64,000 nt of DNA, taken from the NCBI GenBank assembly GCA_963758425.1, contig CAVWVV010000019.1, forward strand, positions 20,129 through 84,128. Direction: 5' to 3'. This document shows, piece by piece, positions 4,315 to 34,047 of this stretch. This DNA comes from an uncultured Verrucomicrobiae bacterium. Its GTDB lineage: Bacteria; Verrucomicrobiota; Verrucomicrobiia; Chthoniobacterales; UBA10450. The stretch's first letter is position 1, and every line of letters starts with the position of its first letter. The translations under genes and the position numbers were made by a program. The notes below the pieces were generated by a model, which searched no databases, had not been told where the DNA came from, and saw nothing but the letters and a program-made list of their open reading frames with translations.

Positions 4315-4323
4315 ACTTGAAGT

Positions 4324-4414: not shown

Positions 4415-4429
4415 CAATCACAGCTGCTT

Positions 4430-5326
4430 ATGCAAACTGACGTTCAATCCTCAATCGACCTTCCCGGAATCAAAAAACTGCGCAGCGGCAAGGTGCGCGA
4501 AGTCTTTGATCTTGGCGACACGCTACTGTTTGTCGTAACCGATCGCATCTCGGCTTTCGATGTGATCCTGCCCGACCCGATTCCTCACAAGGGCGCGGTC
4601 CTCAACCAAATTTCCGCGTTTTGGTTCAAGCGTTTCGAGACGATCCAGAATCACCTTGTGACGTCGAATTTCGAAGAGTTCCCGAAGGAGTTGCAACCGT
4701 TCCGCGAGCAACTCGCAGGGCGTTCGATGATCGTTAAGAAAACGAAGCCGCTCGCGGTGGAATGCGTGGTGCGCGGTTATCTTGCTGGATCCGGTTGGAA
4801 AGAATATCAGCAATCGCAGAGCGTTTGCGGAATAAAACTTCCAGCCGGGCTAGAGCTGGCGTCGCAATTGCCGGAGCCGATCTTCACGCCGGCGACAAAG
4901 GCAGAGCAAGGTCATGACGAGAACATCGACATGAAACAATGTGCTCAGATTCTCGGCGACGAAATCGCCAACCGCGTGAAAAAGTTAAGTCTCGAAATCT
5001 ATTCGCGCGGCCGCGAGCACGCCGCACAGAAGGGAATTATCGTTGCAGACACGAAATTCGAGTTTGGCATCGTCGATGGAGAATTGCTTTTGATCGACGA
5101 ATGCCTCACGCCGGACTCTTCGCGATTCTGGCCGAAAAATGAATACGTCGTCGGGCAGAGCCCGCCTAGCTTCGATAAACAATTCGTGCGCGATTATCTG
5201 GAGACGCTCGACTGGGACAAAACTCCGCCTGCGCCGCGTCTGCCGAACGATGTGATCGAGAAAACGTCGGCGAAATACCTCGAAGCTTTCCGCCGCCTAA
5301 CGGACCGCGAACTCGCAACCGCCTAG
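4430..5326 (+). CDS. purC: phosphoribosylaminoimidazole-succinocarboxamide (SAICAR) synthase
   Basis: 298-aa ORF with PurC hallmarks ([26 protein letters not shown]). Confidence 0.95.
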
Positions 5327-17125: not shown

Positions 17126-18016
17126 ATGGCTACCGAACCAACCACAACAAACATCGCTCTCATCCAGATGCGATGCGGCCCGGAGCTGGAGAAGAATTTC
17201 TCGCGAGCGATTGAATTCATTCGCGAAGCGGCACAAAAAGGCGCCCAGATCGTTTGCTTGCCGGAGCTTTTTCGGTCGCAATATTTTTGCCAGACAGAAG
17301 ATCACAAGAATTTCGATTTGGCTGAGGAAATTCCGGGCAAATCAACATCGGCATTGGGAGAAGTAGCGCGAGAAACCGGCGCAGTAATCATTGCCTCACT
17401 TTTCGAGAAACGCAGCCCCGGCCTCTATCACAACACCGCCGCAATCATTGACGCGAATGGAAAATTGCTCGGCAAATACCGCAAAATGCATATCCCGGAC
17501 GATCCGCTGTATCACGAGAAGTTTTATTTCGCGCCAGGCGATCTTGGATTTCAGGCGTGGCCAACAACCCAAGGTAAGATCGGCGTCTGCGTTTGCTGGG
17601 ACCAATGGTATCCGGAAGCGGCGCGACTGACGGCGTTGCACGGCGCGGAGATTATTTTTTATCCAACAGCAATCGGCTGGCATCCATCGGAAAAGAAGGA
17701 GTTCGGCGCAGCGCAATATTCTGCATGGGAAACAATTCAGCGCAGTCACGCAATTGCGAATGGTTGCTATGTAGCGGTGCCAAATCGCGTCGGCCATGAA
17801 ACGCCTGCGGGTGGAGAAGGGATTGAATTTTGGGGACAAAGCTTCGTTTGCGCACCGGACGGCGAAATCATGGCCAAAGGTTCGGTCGATCGCGAGGAGA
17901 TCGTGATGGCCGATGTAGATTGGGGCCGCGTAAACGAGCAGCGCACGCATTGGCCATTTTTGCGCGATCGCCGCGTTGATGCCTTTTCGGAAATCCAGCA
18001 GCGTCTGATCGACTAA
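17126..18016 (+). CDS. aguB: N-carbamoylputrescine amidase (carbon-nitrogen hydrolase family)
   Basis: Trimmed to MATEPTTTNIALIQ, because the longer ORF start lies inside REPs. Motifs: CLPELF, YRKMHIPDDP, GVCVCWDQWYPEAAR. Confidence 0.85.
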   Translation: MATEPTTTNIALIQMRCGPELEKNFSRAIEFIREAAQKGAQIVCLPELFRSQYFCQTEDHKNFDLAEEIPGKSTSALGEVARETGAVIIASLFEKRSPGLYHNTAAIIDANGKLLGKYRKMHIPDDPLYHEKFYFAPGDLGFQAWPTTQGKIGVCVCWDQWYPEAARLTALHGAEIIFYPTAIGWHPSEKKEFGAAQYSAWETIQRSHAIANGCYVAVPNRVGHETPAGGEGIEFWGQSFVCAPDGEIMAKGSVDREEIVMADVDWGRVNEQRTHWPFLRDRRVDAFSEIQQRLID

Positions 18017-18183
18017 TCTCTGCGGACGGTTGAATGACATTCAGGAGGTCGGGGTTCGAGCGCCTAGGTTCCACCAGTCAATTGGAATCACTTGAGGGTC
18101 TCGCGAAGCGATCGCGGCAAACTTGGCGTAACGAGTGCAACGAAACGGCATCGTGAGGAGCATGGGCATCGAACGATAATCGA

Positions 18184-18444
18184 TTAAGCGCCAGGCGGCA
18201 TCTGGCCGGCATTGGCTTCCCGAAACTTTTTCAGATTTCGCTTAATTTGCCCTCCCTTGTCGCGTCCGGTAGCTTCGAGATACTGTTCGACTTCATTGAG
18301 CAGCGTCTGCAACCCAGGATGGCCCGCCGCAACTCCCAGGCCGAGGAGCGCGCGAATGGCATAGTGCAGCGGCATCGCACTGACCCTATCCTCCCCCGCT
18401 TTTAGGCGTTCCATCTCTGCTTCGATGCACTCGGCGAGAGTCAC
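18184..18444 (-). CDS. hypothetical 86-aa helical protein (GTG start), overlapping the end of the TIR gene
   Basis: AAGGAG lies 10 nt upstream of the GTG at 18444. The sequence looks protein-like (ECIEAEMERLKAGEDRVSAMPLHYAIRALLGLG...). It could alternatively be the frameshifted C-terminus of the TIR protein. Confidence 0.4.
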   Translation of the reverse strand: MTLAECIEAEMERLKAGEDRVSAMPLHYAIRALLGLGVAAGHPGLQTLLNEVEQYLEATGRDKGGQIKRNLKKFREANAGQMPPGA

Positions 18445-19531
18445 GGACGATTGGCTCCTTTGCTTGCTCTTTCGATTTCTCCATCAGAAGGTAGAAGACG
18501 ATTCGGTCCAGTTCCCAGATACTCGCACGCCAACTCAAAGTTTGTGCTTCCGGAAAGGCGAGTTCGCCGTCGTTAATCGCCCGTTGCTTGGCGCGCACCA
18601 ATTCCTTCCTCTCGGCAAAATCAGTCATGCGAGAGAACTCAATCGATTCCGGGATCACCGGTGCTGCCGATGGGCTGTCCAGGAGGAATCGCAGCCTCCG
18701 AATCTGCCTCAAACGCCGTTCGGAAGCGGCAGAAACGACCCCAAGCGTGGGCGAGCCGTCCGAAGCCTTGGTGAAATCCACATCGCCCTCTTCGCTAACC
18801 CAGAACTTCTTTTCTTCAATCAAGAAGCTCTTCAACAGTCCGGCGTAGCCGTCGATTGAGCTAATGAGCTGGTTAAAGAGCTCCTTTTGGTACGGCTCGC
18901 AGATGCGGTCGATCATGGTCTTATAACCCTGCAAGGTTTTTAGGGTTTCGCGGGCGCCCGAGTAGCGGTCTACCCACGTCTGGTGGGTGCACTCACGGAG
19001 CTCTTCCTGAAAAGTTTTTCGCTCGAAAAGCTCCCGAAAATTCGCAACGACGTGTGAAATGCGATCAACCTTGAGCTTCTCCATGCGCTCGTTGAGAGCT
19101 TTCCAATGGGCGTCGTAATCGGCGGGGGGCTCAGTTCCGGCCAGTTTGCAAAGATCATGGGCGAGACGCCGGGTATCGTCTTCCTTATTGGTGGTTCCCT
19201 GAAAAGCACTCAATGGGCCTTTCAAATCCTCTGAACGAACCCCAAACAAGTACGGAAACACTCTGTTCTTTTCTAGCCGCCCGAGCACAGCTCCCGCTTC
19301 GAAGTGCAGCCATTGAGATTGAGTGTTCTCCGCAGTCATGCAGATCAAAGCGGCGTCGGCTTCGGCGAGTTCGCGCCGGACTGCCTCGAACCACTCGATG
19401 CCTTTCTCTATCTGAGGCGAAAAGAAGATGTCTTCATTAGAAAGTCCAGGGACGACATGGATCAGCCATTCTTTCAAGGATTCGGCGAGTTTCTGACTAC
19501 GGATCTGAGACCAGCAAAGGAATATTTTCAT
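18386..19531 (-). CDS. TIR-domain protein with an uncharacterised ~245-aa C-terminal domain
   Basis: The N-terminal ~135 aa follow the bacterial TIR pattern: MKIFLCWS, LKEWL, GIEWFEAVRRELAEADAALICMTAEN, and SQWLHFEAGA with the conserved Glu. I recognise no motif in the C-terminal part. Confidence 0.8.
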   Translation of the reverse strand: MKIFLCWSQIRSQKLAESLKEWLIHVVPGLSNEDIFFSPQIEKGIEWFEAVRRELAEADAALICMTAENTQSQWLHFEAGAVLGRLEKNRVFPYLFGVRSEDLKGPLSAFQGTTNKEDDTRRLAHDLCKLAGTEPPADYDAHWKALNERMEKLKVDRISHVVANFRELFERKTFQEELRECTHQTWVDRYSGARETLKTLQGYKTMIDRICEPYQKELFNQLISSIDGYAGLLKSFLIEEKKFWVSEEGDVDFTKASDGSPTLGVVSAASERRLRQIRRLRFLLDSPSAAPVIPESIEFSRMTDFAERKELVRAKQRAINDGELAFPEAQTLSWRASIWELDRIVFYLLMEKSKEQAKEPIVRDSRRVHRSRDGTPKSGGG

Positions 19532-19558
19532 GGCGCCGAGTGTATAGGTCTGCGTTCG

Positions 19559-21013
19559 CTAGGAATTCCACCAGCCTGCCTTCTTGAGGCCCGCGTCGGT
19601 CTTGATGTTGGGGTCCGATTGGTGCGGGAACTCATGCAGTTGGTTGCTACCGTTCACGATGTCCTGGCCATCAGCCTTGGACACGCGTCGAGGGTGAATT
19701 CCGTAGCGAGCACCAACCGGCATCTGTTTTCCGCCGAGCGCGTTGAGCTTCTGCGTGATCAGGTCATACAGGGCCTGCATATTGAAGCCGTTCGGGTCAC
19801 CATGGTAGTCGTCGGGGTGGTCCCGAACTTTGTCCCAGTGTTTGCCTGTGCCGGCGCGAATCTCCGCCGCCGAGTATTCCCGCCAGATGACTGACCGGCC
19901 CAGGTTGCGGTCCGTTTCCTTGTGGACCGTGATTGTGAGCAGGTGTCGCGCGCGGACTGAGGCGAAGATGTACAGGTCGGCCAGGACGTCGATCGCCGCC
20001 TTGGTCCATTTGTAATAGGTGACTTTCTTGCCCTTCCGCCTGTAGCCTATGGACGCGTACTGGTCGGCACTGGAGGGGTCGCCGCGCGATCCGTCGGACT
20101 TGTCGGGCACGTCGGACTCGACGTCGGGGACGGTCTCGATGTTGATCGTGTGCTCGTTCACGTATTTTTTCCCGTTCTTGCTCAGGAACTCATAGACGGT
20201 GCCCTGCTTGTTCTTAGTGAAGTCGTGAGTGGCCGCGTAGTAGCCGGCGCGGTTGAGGAAGCCGTGCACAGCGCCGCCTTTCGTCTTGGGCTGGTTGGCC
20301 TTGAAACGCCTGTCCTTTAACGTCGCCTTTGCGCCCACGTCGTGGATGATGAACCAGCCCTTGATGATGTCGCTGGTTTTCAGGTCGGCGTTGGGTTCGT
20401 TGGCCGCCTCCTTGAGCGCCGCGTGTTCATCGAGCCACTTCGTTATGAACTCGCGGCGGTTCTTGCCCTTGAGAAACTCGTCGAACTTCGTGCCGTCCAT
20501 TTCGACAGCGGCGTCGCGCTTCGGGTCATCAAAGCGTCCCGGAATCTCGAGCATCACCTTGAGGTAGTCGGGGATCGAGACGCTGGCGACGTGGCCTTGT
20601 GCGATGCTCATGCGCTCGACCTTATGTCCTGCGCCGTCCTCCAGCACGAACCCTATTTCGGCCGCGCTCCCTTCTTCCAAAATGTCCTGGCGGGGGTTCC
20701 ACAGGTGGAAGGCCTTGCTCCCCAGCCAGAGGATGACATCGGGCTTCTTGGTAGCCCTGTAGCTCTTCTCCAACTTGGCGTTAGCCCACTTGGCATTGGC
20801 CACCGCCACGTGAGGAATAGCTGTTTTGGCTGGTTTCTTGACGAACTTGGGGTTGGGCTCCAGGTCCAACGTGAACTCCGCCATCTGGACGTTGTTCGCC
20901 GTTGGGGCGTCCGAGCGTCCGGGCTCGCTGGTGTCGCACTTGTAAACCTTGAGACGAGCACCGCTGACCTTGCTGGCGTCCGCGGTTCCCCAGCGGTCGA
21001 CGATGAGCGCCAC
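19559..21013 (-). CDS. hypothetical 484-aa protein with weak Amidase_2/PGRP-like motifs
   Basis: Intact ORF with a GTG start. Candidate motifs, all divergent: WFIIHDVG, VHGFLNRAGYY, NEHTINIE, LTITVHKETDR. It is in frame with the upstream acidic ORF across a single TAA. Confidence 0.5.
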   Translation of the reverse strand: MALIVDRWGTADASKVSGARLKVYKCDTSEPGRSDAPTANNVQMAEFTLDLEPNPKFVKKPAKTAIPHVAVANAKWANAKLEKSYRATKKPDVILWLGSKAFHLWNPRQDILEEGSAAEIGFVLEDGAGHKVERMSIAQGHVASVSIPDYLKVMLEIPGRFDDPKRDAAVEMDGTKFDEFLKGKNRREFITKWLDEHAALKEAANEPNADLKTSDIIKGWFIIHDVGAKATLKDRRFKANQPKTKGGAVHGFLNRAGYYAATHDFTKNKQGTVYEFLSKNGKKYVNEHTINIETVPDVESDVPDKSDGSRGDPSSADQYASIGYRRKGKKVTYYKWTKAAIDVLADLYIFASVRARHLLTITVHKETDRNLGRSVIWREYSAAEIRAGTGKHWDKVRDHPDDYHGDPNGFNMQALYDLITQKLNALGGKQMPVGARYGIHPRRVSKADGQDIVNGSNQLHEFPHQSDPNIKTDAGLKKAGWWNS

Positions 21014-21064
21014 CTCCGCCGGCGTGCTACCGGTCCTGGCCTTGTTGTTTACGATGCGGGCGGC

Positions 21065-21694
21065 TTAGGCGACACCCGGCAGCATTTCGGAATCCTCGTC
21101 CTCAAGCTCAAGCTCCGTTTCCTCTTCCTCTTCGTCGGCGTTGGGTTTATCAGAATCGCCCTCTGAAACTCGCCGAGTTCCCTCCTTTTCGCTGTACATA
21201 TGGAGAACAGACCTGCGTCTCGGGCTGATAGGCGATTTCCCCTTCCTCTTCAAGCGTCTGGGTACGGCGCCTCGTCCTCGGGGGTTAAAAGTCCCTCTAG
21301 CTCCTCGTTTCCTTCGTTCAGCGGAGCTTCCTCGCTAGCTCCGCTGAGATATTCATCAGATCCTTCAGTTGCAAGGTTCTCATCTTCCTCCGGCTCCGAC
21401 TCGGCGATATGAGGCTCCGAAAGTTCAACTCCTTCGCTCTCGCCAAGCTCGTGTGTTACCAGTTCCTTTAACCCCGCTTCAGTGCCGAAGTCGATCGGGG
21501 CGTCGGTGACGCCGAAATCTTTGGCGAAGGTCATCCACATGATATTCTTCTTCCGATGCGGCGAGGTTCACAGAAGCTCCGGTCAGTCCCTTAAGAAACG
21601 GGCTCTCCTTTGCAAGCCTCTCGACTGTGGAATCGAAATCGGGCCGCGGTTCAGCGCCCAGTAACTCTTCATCAAGAAACGGAGACTTCATCAT
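21065..21694 (-). pseudogene. acidic ESPF-motif protein, readable only across three frames
   Basis: The pieces are 21479..21694 (MMKSPFLDEELLG...KESPFLKGL), 21250..21540 and 21065..21253 (Asp/Glu-rich). The start overlaps the upstream stop as ATGA. Confidence 0.45.
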
Positions 21695-22817
21695 TCAACA
21701 GTCGCCACGAAATCGTCTTCGGGAAAAAACATCTCCGGGTGGATTCCGGAGAGATCCCCAGACCGCATGGCTTTTTGCAGTTCTTTTCGATATGCCTCCA
21801 CTGCGTCAAGAAGCGGAACGTCGGGGTTCGTTTCAATAATCGAAACGCCTTGGGGCACGCGCTGCTGATTGGCGGCGAGGTCGTCGTTGATCTCTTTGAT
21901 CAGCGGTCCTCTTCATTATCCAGCTTCTCGCCTTGGCTGCTGATTCGCTTTCTCGAAACTTGCGGCATGCCGCTGGATTTCGTCGATGACCCGAGCGCGC
22001 AGCACATTGCCCCTTCCATCCTTTGCGGCTTCGAGTCGCTGTTGCAATGTTGCCCACGAAGCACGCACCGCGTCCGAATGCTCCCTCGCAATGTTGGCGA
22101 GCAACGCATTGTGCTTGAGGTACCGCAAGTGCGGAGGAGACTTGGGGAGCCCGGGACCGGCAGGGCCAAGCTTCTTCTCCGACAGCTTGCAGACCTCTTT
22201 CCATAACGCCTTTGCGTCCGAAGGTTTCGACGTGAGTGGTCTTACAACATAGGGCGTCCTCATTCCCCGATACATAGCCTGGACCACCCTCTGCTGCTGT
22301 CTCGTTGGATTCCCCAGCGTCGAGTTCGTGGACCTCAGCGTGTTTGTTGTTGATACTGATGACGACATGCCGATTGAACGTCAGGTCCGCTCGAATCATC
22401 GCTCCGACATGAGCAGGCATCTCGACCAAGAAAATGCGCGGATTTGCGATCCCCAGAGGTGTCGAGCCGGGCGATAAAAGGCGCCCGAGTTTGTGCAGCC
22501 AGCGCACCGCATAGACGAAGCAATCGTGCACCAGCGAACCCGTGATCGCGCGCGGGAATGCACGAATCAGAGTAATCTGGGACACCGCATCCCTCGCGAA
22601 GGTCGTGCGGAGCGTGAACGGTGAAAGCCTCGAGGGACCCGCTACGTAATTCAGAATCATTTCTAACTTCGTCTCCCTCCGCAGCAACGGTGAGTCCCAC
22701 GTTTCCCTTACCCAGGCCTGCCAGGAGTTAGTGTCGTGCAGCTTCGGAAGAGGGTCGGCCTCTCTCTTTTTCCGCAGGCGCTCGATGAAATCTCAGCTTG
22801 ACGCTGTCGAAATACAT
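21691..22817 (-). pseudogene. hypothetical protein, at least 4 frame breaks
   Basis: The ATG at 22817 overlaps the upstream TAA (TAATG). Protein-like segments are spread over ORFs 21833..22687 and 21916..22368 and an unlisted tail (LIKEINDDLAANQQ...FVATVE). That tail lies behind in-frame TAA TGA codons. Confidence 0.45.
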
Positions 22818-23284
22818 TAGCAGGCAGTTGTGTTCATCCCCGTTATCGGGATAGGTGTGGGAGTGTAGTGCTGGTAGCCGATATCGCTGGCACCGGCGGG
22901 ATTGAAGTAATCCCGATACAAGGTAGGCGTTAGGCGAAATGTCGGAGCCAGCGCGTTCTCATCGTCGACAAGGTGTGTTATCGCGGCGGTCTCCAAGTCT
23001 TTCTCCCATTCCTTGTTCACCACTTCCCATCTCAGCCGGCTTTTCGCCGCAGCCTCCAAGACACCGTCTTGCAGCGCCTGATAATGCCGCCAGAGTATCT
23101 GCACCGCCAGCGTTCGGTACGCGAGCAGCAGGTTGTTATCGACGAAAATAGGGGCACGACTCGTAAGTTCCGACTGAAAGAAGCGAAACATGGCGGCTGC
23201 CCGGTTCATCTGCCGCCGGTGGGTTAGTGGTTTGACCACAATGGGGGAAATCTGATGAAGGCGCCGCATCGCGAAGCTGTACAA
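22817..23284 (-). CDS. hypothetical 155-aa protein
   Basis: Uninterrupted ORF with a TTG start. No motif recognised. Confidence 0.4.
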   Translation of the reverse strand: MYSFAMRRLHQISPIVVKPLTHRRQMNRAAAMFRFFQSELTSRAPIFVDNNLLLAYRTLAVQILWRHYQALQDGVLEAAAKSRLRWEVVNKEWEKDLETAAITHLVDDENALAPTFRLTPTLYRDYFNPAGASDIGYQHYTPTPIPITGMNTTAC

Positions 23285-23348
23285 ATTTTTGCCCCATCAG
23301 CGCCAGTAAGCGCGCTGCCTAGACGGTCGGGGTGGTCCACGAAGTTGC

Positions 23349-23784
23349 TTACCTGTTGCCGGGCTCCGTCGGAGTGTCCAGAATGAACGCCTCCGCCCCT
23401 AAACGGGCCACATGAATCCTGAATCTCTGCGACGGCCCTCCCCGTAGCGACTCAAATGTCGCATTCAGCGCGGCGGGAAGTCTGTTGCTGAATTTCACCG
23501 GATCTCCGAACACGGCAAACGCCGCGTCCAGCGCCTTGGCTTGCGCTGTGCCCATTGCCTGCAATTGCCCGCGCAGGGTTGCGTCATTCGGAAGCCCCGG
23601 AAGACCCGCGGGCAGCGTTAGGATCTGCTCCTCCAACTCGGGAGTAGGCGTCGGCGGTTTCATCCTCGTCGTGCTCCTCCTCGTCCCGGGCTTCGGCCAT
23701 CTCCTCGTCTTCAAATTCAAGTTCCTCGTCAGGTTTCTCAGCGTGAGCAAGCTCATCCCTGGCCGTTAACGCGCTCTTCGTCAA
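23349..23784 (-). pseudogene. small protein with an acidic N-terminus, split between two or three frames
   Basis: 23584..23784 (..DEELEFEDEEMAEARDEEEHDEDE..) continues plausibly as 23349..23756 (KPPTPTPELEEQILTLPAGLPGLPNDATLRGQL...). Confidence 0.4.
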
Positions 23785-24257
23785 AGTCTTCGGCGTTCGC
23801 CATCCTGCTCCCGTGGTTCTTCGAACTCGGAGCCTCGTTCGGGCTCAGTGCCGCTGGACAACGGCGGCGCTGCGGGCTCCTCGGCTTCTTCTTCACTCGG
23901 CGCATCTAGAAGCCCGTCATGCAACATGACTTCTTCTTCGGCAAGCAGGTCTTCGCCGAGTTCATCGGATCCTCCCAGCTCCCGCTCAACGAGTATCCCG
24001 GGTTCCTCGACCAAGGCACCTTGGAAAGGGCTCTCCGCTATCAGGGCAGCCACACGCGGTTCCAACTCCTCCTCGGCTCTCTTGGCGAAGAGCTCTCGAT
24101 GGAGGAAAAGGAGACTCGCCGGCCCCGTATGGTCCGTGGACGAGTGCTGCTCCAAGAAGATTGCGCTTTCGTGCTCGAAAGCCGGGGTTTTGCGGGTCGG
24201 CGCGGCGCTCGCAGTTCGCACCTGAGGACAGGGGACAACAGCTTGCTTTGCGGGCAT
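23781..24257 (-). CDS. acidic ESPF-motif protein
   Basis: 158-aa ORF containing AFEHESAIFLEQ and LIAESPFQGALVEE, with a Glu-rich C-terminus. Confidence 0.45.
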   Translation of the reverse strand: MPAKQAVVPCPQVRTASAAPTRKTPAFEHESAIFLEQHSSTDHTGPASLLFLHRELFAKRAEEELEPRVAALIAESPFQGALVEEPGILVERELGGSDELGEDLLAEEEVMLHDGLLDAPSEEEAEEPAAPPLSSGTEPERGSEFEEPREQDGERRRL

Positions 24258-25804
24258 GCCGCGCGCATCACGTCGTTCGCCGCGCGCACACCCGACCGTA
24301 GCGCGCCCTCCATGTATCCGAAGAAGTCCATCTGCGTGTGCTCACCCGCAAAAAACAGCCGTCCCTGCAATGGCTCGCTGAGCTTTTTGCCAATTGTGAA
24401 GATCTGTCCTTTCTTCGGTGACGCGTAGCCTGACCTAATGAATTGCTCCTGGGACCAGTCAACCAGCAGTGGGGTCGACTTAAGATTTTTCTCGTAGTTC
24501 CGATAGAGATCCATCAGACCCTGCCGGAACTTTTTTCGGGAGGAATGTGTCCGCCGGGCAAAGACGGAAAACACGATCCCCTGACCAGCACGTTGCGTTT
24601 GGTTGTCGGTTCCCTCCCAGACCATGCCAATATCCAATGAACCGCCGTTGGGCGCGGCCTTATCCTTGATCCAAAAGCGTTCGGTCATGTTGCTGAAGAA
24701 TTTCACCGCGTCCCCCATCCCCATCATGTCGACCATTTTCGGGCCCTTCGGATCTAGCGTGATGCTCAATTTCCCCCAAACGCTAGGCGGGATCGCTAGG
24801 ATCACGTAGTCGAAGTCTTCTTTCGATTCCTTGCGATAGATGGGCTCTCTGTTGGAACGGGGACTACCGTCAGCGTGACGCGATTCGAGATGTCTATTCC
24901 CTTTACCATCCTGTTCAGCTTAATCTCAGGCGGCTTGGTGCGGCCTTTGACCATGGCCTCGAATTTCCGCCGCCATTTTAGTCGCGAGCTTCTGATTGCC
25001 GTCGGCGCATCGAAAGATCTCTAACTCATCCCAATAACCCATCAGGTCAGTGTCCTTCGGCGTGAACGGGCCGCCCTTCACCAGACAGAGGAGACCGAGA
25101 AAGTTCAGTTCGTGGAGCGGCGCCACGTAATTGTTCAAGACCAGCATCTCCATCGCTTTCCAAAGCCGGCCGTTTTTCCTTATCTTCAGAACCCCGAGCG
25201 CGTCAGCGACGGACATCTTGTCAAACTTCTCCAGGCCCTTCTGGTCCCACGGTCGGGACGGATATTTGATCTGTCTTGCCAACTTGGCGATCGGCTTCAG
25301 GATCTTGTCTCTCAAGTCCTTCTCAAGCTTCTCGATCTCGGCCATTGATAGAGGCTTATCCAACCGGAGCTTCAACTCGAGGCCTGCCTTGGCATAAAGA
25401 TCTTTGTCCATCCTCCCTATCCATGTCAGGCCGTATCCAAGTGCGAGTTCGCGCCACATCAGGTGGAACGATCCGATAAGCTCCGCCCCGCCTCGGGCGA
25501 TCCGGCCCGCGCTGAATGTCGTGTCGCTGCGGACGCGTCCGCCCACCTCTTTGTGCGCTTCAAACAGACTGACCCTGGCCAGGCTGTGTTTGGTAAGCCA
25601 CCTTGCCGCCGCCAAACCGGCGAAGCCCCCGCCCACAATCGCCACCGAAGTGTTTTTCAGCCAGGCGCATTCAATCGGAAACAACGGTGGCTGCCAGCGT
25701 GAGTGCTCGAGGCGGAGATTCTCCTCGATCCGAGCAAGGCGTTCGGACCCGGTGAGCGTTGGTCCAAAGAAACTGTGGAGTTGGGTGTAGAGCGAGCGTG
25801 ACAT
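24041..25804 (-). pseudogene. FAD-dependent amine oxidase (flavin monoamine/L-amino-acid oxidase family), disrupted
   Basis: The N-terminus has VAIVGGGFAGLAAARWL..FEAHKEVGGRV. The C-terminus has FFAGEHT..GYMEGALRSGVRAA. ORFs 24926..25804 and 24041..24805 share a frame but are separated by TGA and TAA. The expected middle segment (EIKLNRMVKGIDISNRVTLTV) is readable only in another frame. The last ~70 codons are an out-of-frame read of the next gene. Confidence 0.75.
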
Positions 25805-26089
25805 GGCGGGCGGATACTAGGGCGAAACGCTGCCCATGGACGACGTTCGGCGCCGGTCCGTCGAGGATGAGGGTTTGCTGCCAGCGGCAGAACTAGGCCG
25901 ATCAAGTAGTTTCTTCGCGGCCTGGCCGCGACGGGGTTTTGAGCCATGAACACTAACAAACACAAGGCAATCTCCTGAGATCAACGAGGAAACCGGCCCC
26001 GCTCACATTCAAATATCTTCAAAGACCTGAGCCCGGCCTCCTGACATTGACAGTGCCGAAGCAAATGCAAGCGCGGACATGGTCGACCT

Positions 26090-27525
26090 TTAGCTGGTCG
26101 CAACCTTGCTAGCCTTCACATCGCGGCCGGTGATCGCGGTCCAGTGAGTGATGATCGTCAGCATGTCGGCTCTCACCGGATTGTCATTGCCGTCGGCGTC
26201 CTTAGGCTCTGTACAACGCCTGCACTGCTGAAGTCGCATTTTCGCTGTAAGTGTCCATTCCGATTTGGATCAAGAGGCGAGAAATCGGATCTGCGATGTC
26301 AAAGAAGTTCTTGGATAAGCCATGCGCAGGCAATCCGACCCGCTCGGCGATCTTGAATAGACGGTTTTCGGGACCGTTTGCCTCCGCACGAAGGGATTTC
26401 ACGATGGGAGAATCAAACTCGAGGTCAAATGGAACCAAGCCATCATGGACACGAAAGCAAACTCTTCCCGGAAGGTTTCCTGCCAGCCTTCGAGACTGAA
26501 GCATGTCATGCAAACTTTCGGCTAACTCCGAAATCTTAGAATCATCGGTCTGCTTGACCCCGCTGGTATTGACGACATTCGTGATACCCACCCATACCTC
26601 CCGCAGGAATTCTTCGAACGTCTTAACAAATTCCGAATTGGCCGCCTCGGCCTTGACATAGGGGTAAGGTTGTCCGGCATCTGTCCCGTGGTTAAGCTCC
26701 ATGCCAAACATCCGCTGATACGCATTGCGGCGGCTCGCCCTTAGGTCTGAACGGATGTGGCTCGATACGTTCGTGATTAGGAATGGGGCAGGATCGCTGT
26801 AAAACAATTCCGCGTGGCGCGCAACCAATGCTGCGTGTCCGCCAGATCGGTCGAGGTGGTGCCGAGGAGTGGGGTGCCGAACTTCTCCCCATGGCGATAT
26901 TCGTGCAATACTCGCCGGAATATCTCGTAAATTCGCGTGTTCTCGATCATGTACGCGTAGATCAAGTGGTCCCAGCGGAGAAGCGCAAACTTTCCGTTAC
27001 CGTTGATAACATCGTCCACCGGCACGCCCGCTATCCCGATCGGCGGCAATGGCACTATTGGAGGCGATGCCCCTGGGCTAAGGACTATTCCAGACCGATG
27101 GTTCGGCGCTAAGAAAGTTCGGGTGGCCGACGGTAAGGTCTGGGTTAACAACCGTTGGGGCCCCGGCCCAGTACGTCGAGATAGGCCGCTAATTCCAGTG
27201 GGTGAGTGCGAAGCACACCTCTCGCGTTCTCTTCCGGGGTTGTCGAACCAAAAACAAGGGTCTCACCGGCTGAATTGGTGAAAAGACGTTTGGGAAGTTG
27301 TCTGAACATAATGATTCCTCGCTTTAAGGCGCTATTTTGATAGCGGAAGGTGTTATGAGATTTAGCCTTGATGGCCTCGGATGGCTCTATTGCTTTTTCC
27401 CCCAGGGAATTCGGCTCTATTACGCTTGCCACGCCACGCGGCGCGGCATTTTTTTGCAGAGCTTTAGTTAAGGCCTGAACGACCTCCGTCGTTGAAGCCG
27501 AAGGTTGTGTTTTTTTCGTTGCCAT
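26090..27525 (-). pseudogene. hypothetical protein (WDHLIYAYMIENTRIYEIF segment), at least 3 frame breaks
   Basis: The pieces are 27145..27525, 26777..27151, 26202..26828 and an unlisted tail (KDADGNDNPVRADMLTIITHWTAITGRDV..) ending at 26090. Confidence 0.4.
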
Positions 27526-27610
27526 TTTTTCCTCCTCTTGTCTTTGATTTCACGCAGCCTGTAATGCCCCGCCTAGCCTTAGCATTGCCTGCTCCTGTAG
27601 GTTTAGGATG

Positions 27611-28814
27611 TTATTCAAATCTCGCGGCCTGCTGGCGAGCTGGAAACCCGTGAGCGCGAGAATCCTCATTGGCTCCGACCAGAGCCAGTGTGCGGAAGTA
27701 AACAAGGCCGGACCGATTCGTCAATCGAGTCACCCAGCTCTTCGCCGGGCTCACTCGCTCTGGTTGAATCAGCGCCCGAAGTGAGCGCCCATTGAAGGCG
27801 CGCATCGTAATATCGAGCGTCAGGCGAACCACGGTGTTCAGTATCGGAAGAGAGTCTTCCAGCAAACTGCGAACATCCGATGGCGCATTAGTCGTCGGAT
27901 GCAGAACCGTCCACGAGAACGCCAGATCATCCCACGGACCAGCGCAATAAAAATATGGGGCATATCTCGACGCCCAACAACACCCGGATGTAACTCACCG
28001 GGTGCGGGTCGCCCTGGGTGTATCGAAACACCATGGGCAGGTCGCCGGCCAGGATGTTGCGTAATGCGGCCACGCTCGCGAAGCCAGTGTGCACAAAGGC
28101 GAAAGCATCTGCCGCGATCTCGGACGACCAACTAGCCCAGGCATCGGCAAACTCGTTCGATCTTCCAGAGATGCCTGAGAAAGGGTGGCGGCGAGTTCGT
28201 CGTTCCATCCCGCGATATGGGCTACATGGTGCGCGGCCTCGTGGATCAATGTCGTGGGTTGCAACAAATTGTGGTGAACGATCTTGATCGCGGCCACCGG
28301 GCTCACTTCTCCTCCATCCCATAAGCGAAGTCCCGCTTTCAGAATGGACGCGCCAAGTCCTTTATCCAGGTAGGTCAGGGCAATGGGCGTTGTCTTGCCA
28401 ATCTGGTCGAGCAGTTGCGTCATGCTTCGATAAGCAAGCGTGTCACAGGCTAGAAGAAAGGGCGGCTATTTGTGGATTCGTTCGCACGTTGATGGCATCG
28501 GCAAAAAAGTCCAGCGTCGTTTCCGTCCGGAGATACTGTTTCCGAAAGGCGAGCAGTTTCCGACGAATCTTAGCCATAGCGGTCGGGCTGTGGGCTGCGC
28601 GCTGCATGGCGGTCAAGACATTCGCGTCGCCCTGAAGTCGATCGAATGATGCTGCGAAATGGCGCCGCAAAGAGACCCCCAGATATCGCTCAAGACGCCC
28701 CCAGGCTTCCTGCGAAGCCAGGTCATCTAGCTTGAGACGAGAGGCCGCGAGCGCCCAATGCGCGATTTGCCGCTCGGTTTGAGTTTGAACATTCTGGATC
28801 TGATGAGTGCACAT
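27611..28814 (-). pseudogene. HExxH zinc-metallopeptidase-like protein, fragmented
   Basis: TLIHEAAHHVAH (HExxH) lies in 27995..28423. A candidate third ligand (SSEIAADAFAF) lies in 27927..28322. The pieces occupy all three frames (28443..28814, 27995..28423, 27927..28322, 27838..28131, 27611..27865). Confidence 0.5.
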
Positions 28815-31221
28815 TTATGCCCCGGGAAGACGTTGACGCGAATGATGGGCTGACTACCTTGACCGATCGCTTCGGCGACCTTGTTGCTTGGACACTTTTC
28901 GACCAGCGCTTGACCGAGTTCTTTCAGTCCTTGCGGGTGCTCGATCGTGAACTGAAGGGTCACGCCGTATGCCGGATCTTCCGTGGCGGCGAGGTATTTC
29001 TGCGACTGCGTCTTGATGAAATCAGAGAAGCCATGCACCAGCCACTCCTGCATTTTCGTAATGAAAACTTGTGGAACAACGCCCGGCAGTCTCTGCAAAA
29101 TGGATTCTGGAGATTGTCCGGGGCGTATTCCAGGGTTTACGATCCGAAGCCGCCGGGGCCGTTCGCCGCGCAGGATATGTGACAGTCTGGGGGCCACAGC
29201 CTTGCTGAAGCGAACCGCCAGAGATCCGGCGTGCGATTGCTGGCGCAGCCGGACGGCGAGCTTCTGGGCCTTCACCTCGCTGAGGTAGATGCAGACATGA
29301 ATTTGATCTTGCGGACCATCCAATGTCACGTTGATATGAAAGAGCCGCTGATCATGATGACGGTGCCATCTTCCGGGGACGGTTAGCGGTCGCCTTCCTG
29401 GAATATCCAGATGAAATAACCGTTGTCCTGAGGCCACGTTCTGCCTGTCTGAACCCCGGAGTGGGCTACGGCCGAGACCAGGCTTACCGAGCAGGGCCGA
29501 CGCGGCCTCCTCTGTCAGCGGATGCAACTGGGAGACGGTAGCTTCGTCTGAGGCGCCCAGACCTGGGGTCTCGCTTTCGCCGCGCGCAATATCGGCGACG
29601 GTTGTGCCGGGCAGAGCTTCGTAGAGATGCACTTCCGCCTGACCTCGGCACCTCTGGCAGTCCGAGCTGATCCTGCAGGTAGTCGGATAGAGGAACGCCT
29701 TCGAAGCTTTCGACTTCCTCAGCCATGTGCGGCGTGATTCTTACTTTGAAAGCTCGGGTACACCGTTTGTATCGCTTGCGCCCACGCAAGGGCATGAACA
29801 GCCATGCAGCGTTGACGCCTGCCTACCAAAAGTTCGGCCGCTGTTGATAGGTTGCCTCGGAAAGCACGGCGGGTAAGTTCGCGGCCGCCGCCTACTGAAA
29901 CGCCTCCAGCACGAATCCTTCCAGCAACCTGGTTATCGAGGATATAATCCAGCAACGAGGTGACTCGATTGATAGTCTCTTCGACCGTTCCCGCTACTGC
30001 AGAAGCAGCAAGACCGGATTTCTCCTGGTCCGACATTTCGAGAGTCAAGAGTTTTAGTCCCGCGTCTACAATCGCTTTGGAGAGCGCAGGAGCCTGCTCC
30101 GGGCCAATAAGTTTCGAGATCAATTTGGCCAGCAGTTGAGCCAGAAAGTTCACGACGTTTTTCCGTCCACCCAGACGTATCGCCAGACGGAGCGCAGGTA
30201 GAACTGCAGGCAGGAAGTTCTGGACGTAAGGCTCGGGACTCTCGCCTGGCTTGAGGTTATCGAGCTCTTGAATGAATTGATCGCGCACATCATCGAGATT
30301 AGCGAAGACAGGAGTCGCGACCGCGGAGGAATTGCTCCGCAGTACCGGCTGCTTCCATGTCGGGTTCAGCTTCATCCTGCGCCAGCAAGGCCCCTGCGAT
30401 CTGTGCGTCAAACTGCTGTTGCATCGTGGGAAGGTCGCTGCCAGCAGCGGCTTGGACCGGCGATCCGGCATTTTCCGGAGGTATCGCCGCGTCGCCGCCC
30501 GCCGCCGTCGCCGGTTCCGCTACTTTCGGCGCGGCAAACCCAACTTTGCCTCAAGTTTCTGGGCCGCCGGTTGAATAGCTTCCGGAAGCTTTCCGATCGC
30601 TTTCTGCAGAACCCGATTCAAAAGCGGCTTAATCAGCGCCTTAATCTTGTTGAGGATGGGGCCGAGTCCAATCTTCGCTATCCCCTTGGCCACGCCCTTC
30701 ACCGCCGAGCCAACTTTTTTTAGCAACTTTCCGAAGAAGTTCTCGAACTCCGGGTCGATCTGCCCAGAAGGCGAATATTGTCCAAAGAAAGACTCGATCT
30801 CGCTTTCGACCAACCCGGTCCCATCACGCGAGCCGAACTCTCGCGCTACCGCATCCACCATGGCTTCCGATTCCCGCACCAAGTGAGAAAAGTGTTGCGT
30901 GACCACTCGGTCGGCTTCGCTGGAAGAATAACCGGAAGCGAGATGATTCTGATGCAAGTTTCGGACGTCGGTCATTAGCTCGAACAGCGCCTCGTCAAAT
31001 TCTTCATCGTAGAGGTTATTGACGATTGTCGCATACGCCTCGCGGACAGGGTCGTCGTATTCGCCCTCACCTTGAATCGACTCGTAGACGGAAACGAACG
31101 GCGAACGAATTGGGGTTGTCGCGCGAACTTCCGCTTCCTCCGCCTCTGCATTTTCAAGCTCGAAGCTCGTAGAATTCAAGAAAGGTACCGCAGCGTTTCC
31201 AGCCGTCATAAGATCGTTCAC
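28815..31221 (-). pseudogene. large hypothetical protein (acidic FELE/SPF N-terminus, Lys-rich amphipathic segment), fragmented
   Basis: The pieces are 30520..31221, an unlisted alternative-frame segment (FAAPKVAEPATAAAGG...TAEQF), 29719..30471, 29484..29795 and 28727..29632. A TAA lies immediately before the ATG of the next gene at 28814. Confidence 0.45.
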
Positions 31222-31295
31222 CTAGATTTAGAGTGCGGCCAACTTTGTAGAATGGACGCCTTTCGACGCTAGACCCCTAAAAGGCTAAATAATTC

Positions 31296-32450
31296 TTGTG
31301 TCTGAAGAAAAATTTTCAGACGCTGGCGGATGCAGTGAAACCCCCTAGTATTTTGAAACGCCTGGCGCGTGGCGCTCGGTGCGACGGCCCACGCTCGATT
31401 AACCTGATGGCGCGAGAAGGACACCGAGCGGACATCATGCGTTGTTGCGCGCTACAACGAAACGGTCTATCGCTCGCTGAGGCGTGGCATGGCGTATTCA
31501 CCCAACTATTCCACGCACTGATCGCGAATGGGGCGATACAAATTCTCCTCGTTGAAAACCGATCAAACTCGACCGGTTCGCGAGTTGTCTCATTCTGCGC
31601 GGCGATTTTTGCAACTGACGAATTTTGTGCTGACGTGCAGTCCACGCTTGGGCCTCATGTCGGTGTGCAGGTAGCGCGGTATTATCGTTTGCGGAAACTG
31701 CCCGTCTTGGATCGGGAGCAGTTGGCTCGAGTGAATTCCTGCGACGGAGTGAATTTGGTTCTGTGCTTCGGAGGCTTGGAATCCGATGGGCTGTCGGTCG
31801 ACGAAATCTTGGCGGTGCGCGAAAAGCAGAAGGAAGCGTTTCGCCTTGCCTGTAGCGGCTATCACCTGAAACAGTTCCTCGGTGATTCCATCGGAGACGA
31901 AGAAGTAGGGTGGATGCTCGGTGCCGGCGCTCGCATCAGGCGCGACTATTCGCGTTATTTCAAGAAGCGCGGCGTGCCGATTCCAGAGTCTTCAGAACGT
32001 CCTTGGCTGGTGGGGTTGACAAGAGAGGAGGCCTTCGCGAATCCCGGTAGCCAGCTCGCGAGCCTTTTCGTTTATTCGCCACCGCGGTTTCATTTCAGTC
32101 ATTCCGAGCAAGCACTGTTGCAGCACGCGCTATTGGGAGAAACGTCCGACGACCTGGCGAGATCGTTGTTCGTTTCTCGGTCGACCGTGAAAAAACGCTG
32201 GCAAGCGATTTACGAAAAGGTCGCAGACGTCGATCGCGAACTGCTGCCGCCGCTGCTCACCAACGGTCTCGTCGCGACATCACGCGGAGCGGAACACAGA
32301 CGGCACCTGCTTCATTATCTGCGCCAGCACCCCGAAGAACTCCGGCCCTACGCGTGGGCCAGACAGGCGGCCACAAATATTCTGCCGCTGGCAATCGATT
32401 TCCTTCTGGGTCCAGAGTTCTTGGACGGTGCTGCGATGTTCTTCTCGTAA
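31296..32450 (+). CDS. LuxR/GerE-type HTH transcriptional regulator with an uncharacterised N-terminal domain
   Basis: The C-terminus (SEQALLQHALLGETSDDLARSLFVSRSTVKKRWQAIYEKV) matches the GerE HTH pattern. The start is uncertain: TTG 31296, ATG 31407 or ATG 31437. It is divergent from the island operon. Confidence 0.7.
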   Translation: MCLKKNFQTLADAVKPPSILKRLARGARCDGPRSINLMAREGHRADIMRCCALQRNGLSLAEAWHGVFTQLFHALIANGAIQILLVENRSNSTGSRVVSFCAAIFATDEFCADVQSTLGPHVGVQVARYYRLRKLPVLDREQLARVNSCDGVNLVLCFGGLESDGLSVDEILAVREKQKEAFRLACSGYHLKQFLGDSIGDEEVGWMLGAGARIRRDYSRYFKKRGVPIPESSERPWLVGLTREEAFANPGSQLASLFVYSPPRFHFSHSEQALLQHALLGETSDDLARSLFVSRSTVKKRWQAIYEKVADVDRELLPPLLTNGLVATSRGAEHRRHLLHYLRQHPEELRPYAWARQAATNILPLAIDFLLGPEFLDGAAMFFS

Positions 32451-32624
32451 CAATCGGTACGCCGTGGGATTAAACTACGCCGTGAAATCGGGTGCCGGTT
32501 GGTCGACCAAGCTGGTCGACGTGGGACAGCGCTGGACTCCTGGTCTAGTCCTAGACTCCGAGGACAATCCCCACATGGTCTTCTACGACGCCGAGCACGG
32601 CGCACTGATCTACGCGACACGATC

Positions 32625-32831
32625 GTCGGGCACGGAATCGAATTCGGTGGCAAAGTTTCATGTGCGCGCCGAGCGGAATGATCGTTGCCAAGGGCTCGGT
32701 CGATCGCGAAGAGATCGTCATAGCTGAGATCGACTGGGAGCGCGGGAGATCGACATCGTACTCATTGGCTGTTCCTGCGGGATCGGCGCGTCGATGCTTA
32801 CGGCGGCCTCGAGCAACGGATGCTAGACTGA
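32625..32831 (+). pseudogene. decayed second copy of the aguB 3' end
   Basis: Aligns by eye to 17820-18016. GIEFGGK..(frameshift)..IVAKGSVDREEIVIAEIDWER...FLRDRRVDAYGGLEQRMLD* compares with GIEFWGQSFVCAPDGEIMAKGSVDREEIVMADVDWGR...FLRDRRVDAFSEIQQRLID*. Confidence 0.75.
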
Positions 32832-32877
32832 TTTTTTTTGGGCGGTCTGCTGCGCGGTTTATGTTAATACGGTGGCG

Positions 32878-32994
32878 ATGACCGCGAGAGTTCCTCAGCG
32901 CATACGCCGGCCATGGTATCGGCCGTCGTTGACGGTGCAGATCATGATCGGGTTAGTTGTCGGCGGTGTGACCGGCTGGCTGAGGTCCGATTGA
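32878..32994 (+). pseudogene. truncated 5' copy (38 codons) of the downstream DAACS symporter gene
   Basis: MTARVPQRIRRPWYRPSLTVQIMIGLVVGGVTGWLRSD* compares with MTARVSQPVLRPWYRPSLTSQIMIGLVVGGVIGWLRPEW... at 34048. The upstream leader is also duplicated. Confidence 0.8.
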
Positions 32995-33081
32995 AATCAT
33001 TTGTTCCAACGTCTCCTTGGAAATGGCGGAGTCCTTCGTGCTCCGTTACGCTCCTATGTTATACTGCACCTACACGCAATC

Positions 33082-33525
33082 ATGAACTCCCGCGAATCGG
33101 CACTCGAGGAGTGTGATAGATTAGCCAAGCATTTCGACGAGCGGGCGAAAAGAAACAAGAGAAAGTTTGTGCGTTACACATACTCCAGCGTAGCGCTTAC
33201 GGTTGGTGTAACCGTCATCTCGGCTCTACAGGGCATCTATCAGCCAGTCCCCTTTTGGGCGTGGGTTCTGCCAGTGGTCAGTGGCTTGGCTGCATTCTGC
33301 ACCACCATGGTGCACGCTACAAATGCGCAGGAATTATGGCTGCGAGCCCGGTCTATGACGCACCGTCTAAACACAGAGCGGTTTCTGTTTCTGCAAGGTG
33401 CAGGCATCTATTCGGAGTCGGAGGAGACCGACTCGGTGAAGCTGTTTTCCAACCGTCTGATGGATATTTGGGCAGGTGGGCATGAGCAATGGGAGAGAGC
33501 GGCTGAGCGTCAAAAGGGAACCTAA
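33082..33525 (+). CDS. SLATT/DUF4231-like two-transmembrane protein
   Basis: Trimmed to the ATG at 33082. Two hydrophobic helices (SSVALTVGVTVISAL, WVLPVVSGLAAFCTTMV) are followed by the QELWLRARSMTHRLNTERFLFLQGAGIY pattern typical of DUF4231. Confidence 0.65.
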   Translation: MNSRESALEECDRLAKHFDERAKRNKRKFVRYTYSSVALTVGVTVISALQGIYQPVPFWAWVLPVVSGLAAFCTTMVHATNAQELWLRARSMTHRLNTERFLFLQGAGIYSESEETDSVKLFSNRLMDIWAGGHEQWERAAERQKGT

Positions 33526-33578
33526 AAAGTCCGAGACGCGGCTTGCTGAAATTAAGTTATGGAAAGAAGAAGTTAGCC

Positions 33579-34004
33579 ATGGATAAAGAGCAGATATTAC
33601 TCGCTGAATACACAGAAGTTTGTAAAACCTATCATGCCATCTCCGATTTCAGAGGAAAGCTGCTGGCATTGCTGCCAATCGTATCTGGGGCAGGGATTTC
33701 GCTGTTGATCAGTAAGAATCATTCACCAGATTCATCGCATCTTTTGGCCGTAGGGATTTTCGGGGTGCTTGTCACATTGGGCCTCTTCTTTTACGAGCTG
33801 CGAGGAATTCAGAAATGCAAAAGTTTGATCATCCTCGGTGGTAAAATAGAAAGTGAACTGAAAATCGAGCTGGGACAGTTCAACGATCGTCCGAGACGGA
33901 TCGCTGGTTTTATAGGCGCGGAGACAGCGGGTTGGGTAATCTACATGGCCGTATTGGCGGCCTGGCTCTACGTTGCGTGGGTCGGAATTTGCGGGCCGCG
34001 CTAA
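33579..34004 (+). CDS. hypothetical small membrane protein (3 predicted TM helices)
   Basis: The ATG at 33579 is preceded by GGAAAGAAGAAG. Hydrophobic helices: LLALLPIVSGAGISLLI, LLAVGIFGVLVTLGLFFY, GWVIYMAVLAAWLYVAWVGI. Confidence 0.5.
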   Translation: MDKEQILLAEYTEVCKTYHAISDFRGKLLALLPIVSGAGISLLISKNHSPDSSHLLAVGIFGVLVTLGLFFYELRGIQKCKSLIILGGKIESELKIELGQFNDRPRRIAGFIGAETAGWVIYMAVLAAWLYVAWVGICGPR

Positions 34005-34047
34005 ACTGAGATCCGACTGTTGCGCGGTTCGTGTTAATACGAGTTCG

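Follow-up and report, generated by a model that had tools for sequence, protein, structure and literature searches.

The subject of this study is the junction between aguB, which encodes an N-carbamoylputrescine amidase-like protein, and a gene for a symporter of the SDF/DAACS type in a 64,000-nt stretch of contig CAVWVV010000019.1, hereafter called the window. The host is Candidatus Udaeobacter (Verrucomicrobiota), which is described as one of the most abundant groups of soil bacteria and as uncultured (PMC7343977), so that its gain of accessory genes is known only from sequence. In the window, the order at this locus is aguB, a 14.6-kb cargo block (I1), a relic of about 370 nt (32625-32993) consisting of an orphan aguB 3' end and an orphan symporter leader and start, a 1.0-kb cassette (I2), and finally the leader and intact body of the symporter gene (Table 1). 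Two insertions, I1 and I2, have entered a formerly compact aguB-symporter junction, and each of them carries a replacement gene end, the old end being kept as an orphan. The best NCBIfam match of the aguB product is TIGR03381 (N-carbamoylputrescine amidase, E 5e-91, under the curated cut-off), and the Pfam domain CN_hydrolase is found with E 4e-61.

The relic was examined by a sensitive blastn search with 32400-33100 as the query and the whole window as the target. The interval 32634-32797 matches the aguB 3' end at 17819-17982 with 72.9% identity over 166 columns, and the interval 32847-32993 matches 34017-34163, the symporter leader and first ~38 codons, with 81.6% identity over 147 ungapped columns (E 2.3e-36), while the remaining non-self matches have E values of at least 0.45. 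The 147-nt pair of symporter starts was also recovered independently by a separate repeat search. The original prediction had noticed by eye a copy of the aguB end at 32625-32831, of 70-75% identity and with a 1-nt deletion, followed by the leader and 38 codons of the symporter, and the formal alignments bear out both repeats. The deletion is real, lies near 32648 and is common to two other assemblies with the same structure, and another small indel near 32745 is private to the window. A single island had been described, which corresponds to I1; because the symporter start is duplicated too, there is a second insertion of 1 kb at 32994-34016 in the symporter 5' end, and this one had not been called.

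Species-representative genomes were scanned with AguB, which yielded 80 loci, all from Chthoniobacterales (Verrucomicrobiota) and with 73-93% amino-acid identity to the window protein, the closest being labelled Candidatus Udaeobacter, and these loci were then searched by tblastn with the proteins of the window. In about 25 closer genomes, the order is carB, a peptidyl-prolyl isomerase gene, aguB, the symporter gene, a gene for a 137-aa membrane protein and SixA, with a gap of roughly 40-170 nt between aguB and the symporter gene. The ancestral adjacency of these two genes, which had been proposed from the window, is thus seen directly. None of the 80 loci contains genes of I1 or I2, and none contains a duplicated aguB 3' or symporter 5' fragment, except for an 80-nt remnant of the symporter start in one genome (L025). 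In more distant lineages of Chthoniobacterales, sodC directly follows aguB. A check of composition shows that I1 is deviant: in tetranucleotide usage, the correlation with the remainder of the window is 0.93-0.95 in the flanks and 0.72-0.86 across 18-32 kb and recovers after 34 kb, and the GC content is 0.568 in I1, 0.505 in I2 and 0.546 and 0.532 in the flanks.

Other arrangements also occur at this position. In L025 (10870-13641), a gene for a 760-aa subtilisin-like (S8) protease stands in the place of the symporter, with the ~80-nt symporter 5' remnant lying between aguB and the protease gene; the junction was rearranged independently in this case. In L010 (10880-13000), genes for an HD-domain protein and an N4/N6 DNA methyltransferase follow aguB instead of the symporter. 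The aguB-symporter junction is a variable spot.

To assign the gene ends, each aguB copy was cut ~38 nt before the stop codon and the pieces were compared with those of 77 relatives. In the working aguB, the 160 nt upstream of the cut are nearest to close relatives of the host (Table 1), with a mean identity of 81.4% to close and 74.8% to distant relatives. The last 38 nt of the working gene, designated tail_I, are absent from the 80 relatives, the best matches being 76-82% to distant lineages such as L057 (79%), L061 and L068. In the orphan, the upstream 160 nt are 70-79% identical to all relatives, with L057 as the best match and means of 70.8% for close and 72.5% for distant ones, and the last 38 nt form a resident-type tail (92% identical to L006). 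At the other gene, the orphan leader and start are 91% identical to L003 and L004, against 78-85% for the working symporter start and the same two genomes. The duplicated segment of the working symporter gene is 79-86% identical to L002, L003, L005 and L008, and the 150 nt that follow it are 93-95% identical. Taken together, both working genes have an atypical end beside the insertion and the relic has the resident-type ends.

These matches indicate that tail_I of the working aguB was brought by I1 and that the orphan retains the resident-type tail. For the working symporter gene, I2 appears to be the source of the leader and the first ~38 codons (34017-34163). As a moved block, I1 is accordingly best delimited as 17979-32624, including the last ~13 codons of the working aguB; an inserted block from 18017 to about 32620 had been predicted, of which the insertion itself stands while the left edge has to be shifted ~38 nt into aguB. 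The working and the orphan aguB ends differ at 13, 8 and 32 sites on codon positions 1, 2 and 3, respectively, and since the differences lie mostly at third positions, the copies diverged mostly while coding. The second aguB copy had been called decayed. It is frameshifted, but the codon pattern, together with a 5' part that is no closer to near relatives than to distant ones, identifies it as a different aguB allele and not simply as a decayed duplicate.

Table 1. Features of the aguB-symporter locus in the window
Feature	Position	Strand	Remarks
aguB, intact, CN_hydrolase, N-carbamoylputrescine amidase-like	17126..18016	+	maximal open reading frame (ORF) start 17063
Resident-type portion of the repeated aguB 3' segment	17819..17978	+	nearest L002 88%, L001 87%, L004 86%
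tail_I, last ~13 codons of aguB (..AFSEIQQRLID-stop), assigned to the island block	17979..18016	+	
I1, 14.6-kb cargo	18017..32624	.	absent from 80 related loci; deviant composition
TIR-domain protein	18386..19531	-	PADLOC TIR-TM E 1.4e-31; Pfam TIR_2 E 4e-6, just under cut-off
Rare-family protein (484-aa ORF in the window)	19559..21013	-	beta-sandwich domains and weak AmpD-like amidase-type domain
Flavin amine oxidase gene, interrupted in the window	23781..25965	-	Pfam Amino_oxidase
Homologues of conserved 790/419/70/401-aa unknown genes, indel-fragmented in the window	26093..31221	-	tblastn: multiple frames, fewer breaks in contig_100833
Putative helix-turn-helix regulator, divergently oriented	31296..32450	+	Pfam GerE E 5e-3, below cut-off (weak GerE/LuxR)
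Truncated ORF fragment, right edge of I1	32460..32624	+	no Pfam match; 100% identical in contig_100833
Orphan aguB 3' fragment (last ~200 nt), frameshifted	32625..32831	+	blastn E 6.7e-18
Orphan symporter leader and 38 codons	32847..32993	+	ATG 32870, premature stop 32984-32986
I2, 1-kb SLATT cassette	32994..34016	+	absent from 80 loci
I2 SLATT/DUF4231 protein with two transmembrane segments	33082-33525	+	NCBIfam SLATT_1 75 bits (cut-off 41); Pfam DUF4231 5e-12
I2 153-aa membrane partner	33543-34004	+	
Working symporter gene (SDF/DAACS)	34017..35400	+	ATG 34048; Pfam SDF E 1e-112

Exact-sequence look-ups with the aguB, symporter and SLATT proteins of the window gave no match, so that the source assembly is absent from the indexed collection. 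The same architecture was found in independent assemblies. A 99%-identical homologue of the 484-aa I1 protein led to contig_100833 of the ENA assembly ERZ25039463 (16,489 nt; L081/L086), which aligns to 17609-34078 of the window and ends within aguB on one side and within the symporter start on the other. The divergence between the two sequences is ~11-13% in aguB up to 17978, falls to ~0-2% from 17979 to 32625 (~0.1% over 18.1-22.6 kb) and is again ~8-11% across the relic and I2. This sharp profile shows that the stretch lacking homologues elsewhere in the population extends from tail_I exactly to the start of the orphan aguB end. The profile could result either from a recent transfer of I1 between lineages or from the overwriting of its flanks by imports from island-free strains, and both explanations imply recombination through flanking homology.

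A third assembly was recognised by a 24-mer of tail_I, which is present in only one record of the scanned collection of metagenome contigs, WNGI01030635.1 (L087). Tail_I is identical in the window and contig_100833, and from ~17989 onwards in L087 as well, while the upstream aguB differs by 10-20%. The order in L087 is an isomerase gene, aguB ending in tail_I, I1 with large deletions, the orphan aguB end, the orphan symporter leader and start, I2, a third aguB 3' fragment and sodC. Its aguB body is 92% identical to L013 and L033. The orphan aguB end reaches ~45 nt further upstream than that of the window (5' limit about -243 vs -200) and is preceded by a different sequence. The third aguB fragment, which directly follows the SLATT cassette, has an open frame of 79 codons and is 84% identical to L054, and the sodC gene behind it, encoding a Cu/Zn superoxide dismutase, is 93% identical to L069 (third fragment and sodC at reverse-complement positions 4227-5011). 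The island complex of L087 either sits in the junction of another lineage or has captured it. The SLATT gene is kept in L087 and the TIR gene is lost.

Exchange between the working gene and the orphan has left a trace. The 17-mer GATCGACATCGTACTCA is found in the orphan aguB end of the window (32751-32767) and of L087, and in contig_100833 it is found instead in the functional aguB (L081 13250-13266), the orphan of this contig being more canonical there. An orphan-type 17-mer inside a functional aguB points to ectopic exchange between the two copies. In addition, the island-bearing assemblies do not agree in the aguB body, which in each of the three resembles another island-free lineage.

Two more matches are taken to lie on one ENA contig of 26,010 nt: P0092, an ORF of 56 aa similar to the orphan aguB end and 91% identical to its frameshift-corrected peptide, and P0012, which is homologous to the rare I1 protein and contains a frameshift. 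This contig is probably a fourth island-bearing assembly. The search with the frameshift-corrected peptide also returned many 'aguB' proteins of 79-129 aa, which would have suggested widespread orphans and were not counted. One short 'aguB' that was inspected, P0088 (L090 1440-1540), is a full aguB split by a scaffold run of Ns and not an orphan.

The island had been described as free of integrase and recombinase genes, and the domain scans agree. Integrase, resolvase and transposase domains were found neither in I1 nor in I2, with Pfam and PADLOC on the ORFs of the window and with precomputed Pfam annotation on all called genes of contig_100833. The 64-kb window contains no tRNA gene, no Rfam family lies in or beside the island, and promoter and terminator scans gave nothing informative. 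The two junctions do not have an identical att core in common as a direct repeat. At the exchange point (about -38), identity between the copies is limited to runs of 5-6 nt; their longest common run, of 14 nt, lies within the repeat at ~130 nt before the stop codon. The proposed class of mechanism, in which incoming DNA carries its own copy of the target gene end and brings no integrase, fits these observations.

We therefore favour, with a probability of roughly 0.6, the reading that this is a layered, horizontally acquired island at the ancestral aguB-symporter junction, gained through recombination anchored in both gene ends and without an island-encoded integrase. The data show the insertions and their absence from relatives, the replaced and displaced gene ends, the mosaic divergence and the lack of mobility genes, whereas the recombination route and the order of events are inferred. 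I1 (17979-32624) entered within the last ~200 nt of aguB, and its own 13-codon aguB tail now ends the working gene. The old aguB 3' end was displaced 14.6 kb downstream as an orphan, with the former intergenic region and symporter start still attached to it. I2 appears to be the mirror image of this event at the symporter 5' end, a new leader and ~38 codons having come in and the old start having been left as an orphan. I2 probably arrived before the current I1. Host homologous recombination is the likely route, for which two versions can be envisaged: one reciprocal crossover between the chromosome and a circularised fragment on which ~150-250 nt of the target gene end are present (version 1), or one-sided homology-facilitated illegitimate recombination (HFIR) of linear DNA (version 2). 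After its arrival, the complex would pass from one Udaeobacter lineage to another through ordinary recombination of the homologous flanks.

Version 1, with ~200 nt of an aguB 3' end on the circular fragment, predicts that both products are chimeric. The pattern of best matches suggests chimerism, and both atypical aguB pieces, of 38-160 nt, point to the same distant lineage (L057). Version 2 is favoured by the truncated ORF at the right edge of I1, by the different 5' limits and upstream sequences of the orphan aguB end in L087 and the window, by the nested third aguB fragment in L087 and by possible microhomology. The latter is a CCG(C)TGT motif at the joint of I2 and the third fragment in L087; this is one joint, and the limits of the orphans are perhaps not from independent events. 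A strictly reciprocal (Campbell) crossover was favoured at first and was downgraded after natural alleles with both 'types' and the differing bodies of the flanking genes had been found.

Several points weigh against the favoured reading or against its details. In P0078 and P0081, the 'VDRHR' motif and an 'AYGGLEQR' tail occur together in natural aguB alleles, so that the orphan need not be chimeric, and the reciprocal-chimera pattern is based on pieces of only 38-160 nt. The original crossover points have probably been overwritten, since the aguB bodies resemble different island-free lineages, and the evidence fits a reciprocal crossover and a one-sided illegitimate joining alike. The route is unobserved, and neither a circular form nor empty-site reads nor a donor arrangement came to light. 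With only ~73% identity today, the aguB copies would be recombined poorly by RecA, unless the partners in the original event had been more similar. Most I1 proteins are unannotated, and an unrecognised recombinase is therefore possible. Finally, the right neighbours of I2 differ between the window and L087, and yet its right end agrees to within ~10 nt, a coincidence that hints at a defined end and is unexplained by the model.

A bolder idea, which we consider rather doubtful, is that the aguB 3' and symporter 5' fragments are not mere scars and serve as working 'portable homology arms' of integrase-free cassettes. If this were true, a copy of a conserved gene end at its flank would be enough for any DNA to be knocked in by host recombination beside that gene in any lineage, irrespective of the downstream sequence. 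The gene would be restored in the process, and the nested orphans would serve as arms for the next transfer, L087 with its downstream aguB-sodC arrangement being an example. Recombinase-free, self-targeting mobile units would then shape the flow of accessory genes, possibly including TIR and SLATT defence genes, in abundant uncultured soil Verrucomicrobia.

Among the rival explanations, site-specific integration of the e14 or phage-21 type holds up best, although we regard it as improbable. It would place an attP site in an aguB-like 3' segment and assume that the tyrosine or serine recombinase responsible is now missing or has its gene at another place. The end result would be the same as that of icd and icdC around e14, namely a replacement 3' end and a native end left as a pseudogene on the far side (PMC13626634), and the edges of I1 are indeed sharp and common to independent assemblies. 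The called genes of the window and of the cleaner contig_100833 have no recombinase domain, however, there is no tRNA gene, and a long identical core is lacking at the exchange point, the longest common run (14 nt) being the one ~130 nt before the stop codon. The 5' limit of the orphan also differs between L087 and the window, and the same architecture recurs at the symporter 5' end with a cassette of 1 kb, which is too small for an integrative element.

Much less probable is a local duplication, in which replication slippage or a tandem duplication around inserted DNA, for example, copied the aguB 3' end and the symporter 5' end on the spot and the middle copy is a decaying host pseudogene. 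The frameshift of the orphan, seen in three assemblies, and the earlier impression of decay by eye would suit such an origin, but the third-position bias of the differences would not. Moreover, the 5' part of the orphan is no closer to near relatives than to distant ones, while the working copy is, and the atypical tail belongs to the working gene and not to the orphan. Uniform neutral decay is excluded by the adjoining orphan symporter start with its 91% identity to relatives. It is equally hard to accept an island that dates back to the common ancestor of the clade and that recombination of the direct repeats later removed precisely from every sampled relative. The direct repeats flanking I1 and I2 would permit deletion, and ectopic exchange between the working and orphan aguB ends has been seen; against this, each of the ~25 species-level genomes would need a precise loss that restored the normal junction, the composition of I1 is deviant, tail_I resembles alleles of distant lineages, and the I1 module is found elsewhere in unrelated contexts. 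Mis-assembly of co-occurring metagenome strains, which would have joined the middle fragment and the islands, is scarcely credible: the 59 indels of the window I1 relative to contig_100833 suggest lower consensus quality or strain mixing and contig_100833 ends inside the two genes, but three assemblies from different samples have the same junctions (tail_I to I1, through the relic, and relic to I2) with 5-10% divergence there, which excludes a chimeric artefact for the main junctions, and assemblers should be able to tell repeats of 73-82% identity apart.

The favoured reading of a layered island anchored in both gene ends can be compared with several known systems. In the case of e14 in the icd gene of Escherichia coli, the element supplies the 3' end, the orphan icdC lies on the far side, and the copies recombine into chimeric genes (PMC13626634). 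As with e14 and phage 21, a replacement 3' end, here tail_I, keeps a housekeeping gene intact and in frame. The original 3' end lies on the far side as a diverged orphan, here followed by the resident-type intergenic region and symporter start, and the orphan-type patch in the functional aguB of contig_100833 parallels the e14 chimeras. Unlike the aguB island, which has no detectable recombinase or identical core, e14 encodes an integrase and excises on SOS induction. The cargo here is not a prophage, and a second cassette acts on the 5' end of the neighbouring gene.

A second parallel is provided by the loci of Rhs, contact-dependent inhibition (CDI) and type VI secretion system (T6SS) effectors, in which C-terminal displacement is proposed to proceed via homology-facilitated illegitimate recombination (PMC5361080, PMC3240628). 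As in their orphan arrays, there is a conserved upstream anchor, the aguB body, with I1 starting at the last 13 codons, and older 3' ends with a conserved stub have been pushed downstream, as in the nested orphan and third aguB fragments of L087. In contrast to these systems, the anchor is a housekeeping amidase, the displaced tail has 13-80 codons and no toxin or immunity logic, and the downstream gene shows a mirror-image displacement of its 5' end.

The minimal mobile elements of Neisseria are cassettes between two conserved genes that are exchanged by homologous recombination (PMC3082526). The aguB junction likewise has no mobility genes and variable contents (the symporter only, I1 and I2, the S8 protease, or the HD protein and methylase), and its mosaic divergence is consistent with exchange through flanking homology, although it fits the overwriting of flanks from island-free strains as well. 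Classical minimal mobile elements swap cleanly between intact flanks, whereas the gene ends are here duplicated and displaced, and these ends record the primary non-homologous acquisition too. With classical genomic islands, the locus shares its absence from relatives and its atypical composition, but it differs from them in the lack of mobility genes and of a tRNA gene anywhere in the window. The locus is a clear, multi-layered case, which extends the patterns of icd and e14, of Rhs-type displacement and of minimal mobile elements and overturns none of them. It offers a readable record of integrase-free gene gain, with displaced and replacement ends, ectopic exchange and a transfer signature of ~1% vs ~10% divergence.

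The cargo of I1 begins with the TIR protein, whose identification from sequence was confirmed and which has 448 aa in the cleaner contig_100833. The neighbouring 484-aa ORF had been noted for weak amidase-like motifs. The alignment of its family supports this by conserved H, H, E and H-D columns, the invariant ones being H286/D287, H312, E355, H419, H426, E428 and D430, and the family is rare, with only 25 homologues among 5.8 billion proteins. For an AlphaFold model of a 546-aa member (pLDDT 82), the best Foldseek matches are AmpD (2y28), the endolysin PlyP100 and AmiE, all of them weak with E at least 0.05. The amine oxidase, likewise predicted, is a single intact gene of 827 and 819 aa in L081 and L082, respectively, and its homologues have a weak SprT-like C-terminal domain. 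The proposed LuxR regulator is less secure, its GerE/LuxR match falling below the cut-off. Of the fragment at 32460-32620, said to derive from a repeat-propeller protein, the truncated ORF is real, the propeller identity is unverified, and the fragment is absent from L087.

The rare-family gene belongs to a six-gene module for proteins of 790, 419, 70 and 401 aa, the 819-aa amine oxidase and a 661-aa protein, the member of the rare family. Its gene order is conserved in other soil metagenome contigs, L082 (666-11986), L083 and L084, where the module lies in an unrelated neighbourhood downstream of genes for a sigma-54 activator and a DUF3467 protein. The 661-aa and 790-aa proteins have no match among PDB sequences. 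In the window, I1 differs from contig_100833 by 59 mostly single-base indel events between 22600 and 31221, of which 18 lie in homopolymers, and the flanking core genes are intact; these indels reflect either pseudogenisation or a local consensus error. The cargo possibly serves cell-wall or oxidative antagonism, or defence, which is a guess. The locus thereby draws attention to a rare unannotated module in which four unknown proteins accompany an AmpD-like protein and an amine oxidase with a putative protease domain, and this module may be the more novel part of the locus.

The proteins of I2 have homologues of 71-92% identity at unrelated loci. Pairs of TIR and SLATT proteins are a described defence configuration, type VII Thoeris (bioRxiv 10.64898/2025.12.03.692087), and the composite island encodes one protein of each kind. 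A Thoeris reading was nevertheless rejected, as 14 kb separate the TIR gene from the SLATT gene, the two lie on opposite strands and in separately acquired layers, they form no operon, and L087 has SLATT without TIR. The TIR protein and the SLATT cassette are strain-variable cargo worth testing.

Further variation was observed outside the junction. About 2.5 kb of extra sequence lies between the symporter gene and the gene for the 137-aa membrane protein in L003, L005, L007, L011, L018, L019, L026, L027 and L029 (~12.3-14.9 kb in locus coordinates), and its lack in the window, L001, L002 and L006 indicates a second variable spot just downstream. Upstream of aguB, carB is split over two overlapping ORFs (window 12113-16121). 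In the second of them (13503-16121), ~285 aa of an IS200-like, REP-associated tyrosine transposase (RAYT) sequence (Pfam Y1_Tnp 2.7e-7) are fused in frame to the C-terminal half of CarB. By tblastn, the transposase-like part is matched in L002, L013, L018, L020 and L057, among others, and unmatched in L001, L003 and L005, and the RAYT-like insertion inside carB therefore seems to be polymorphic and widespread. Finally, the segments 48000-54000 and 56000-60000 of the window have tetranucleotide correlations of ~0.79-0.80 and a GC content of ~0.52, and they may be further acquired DNA.

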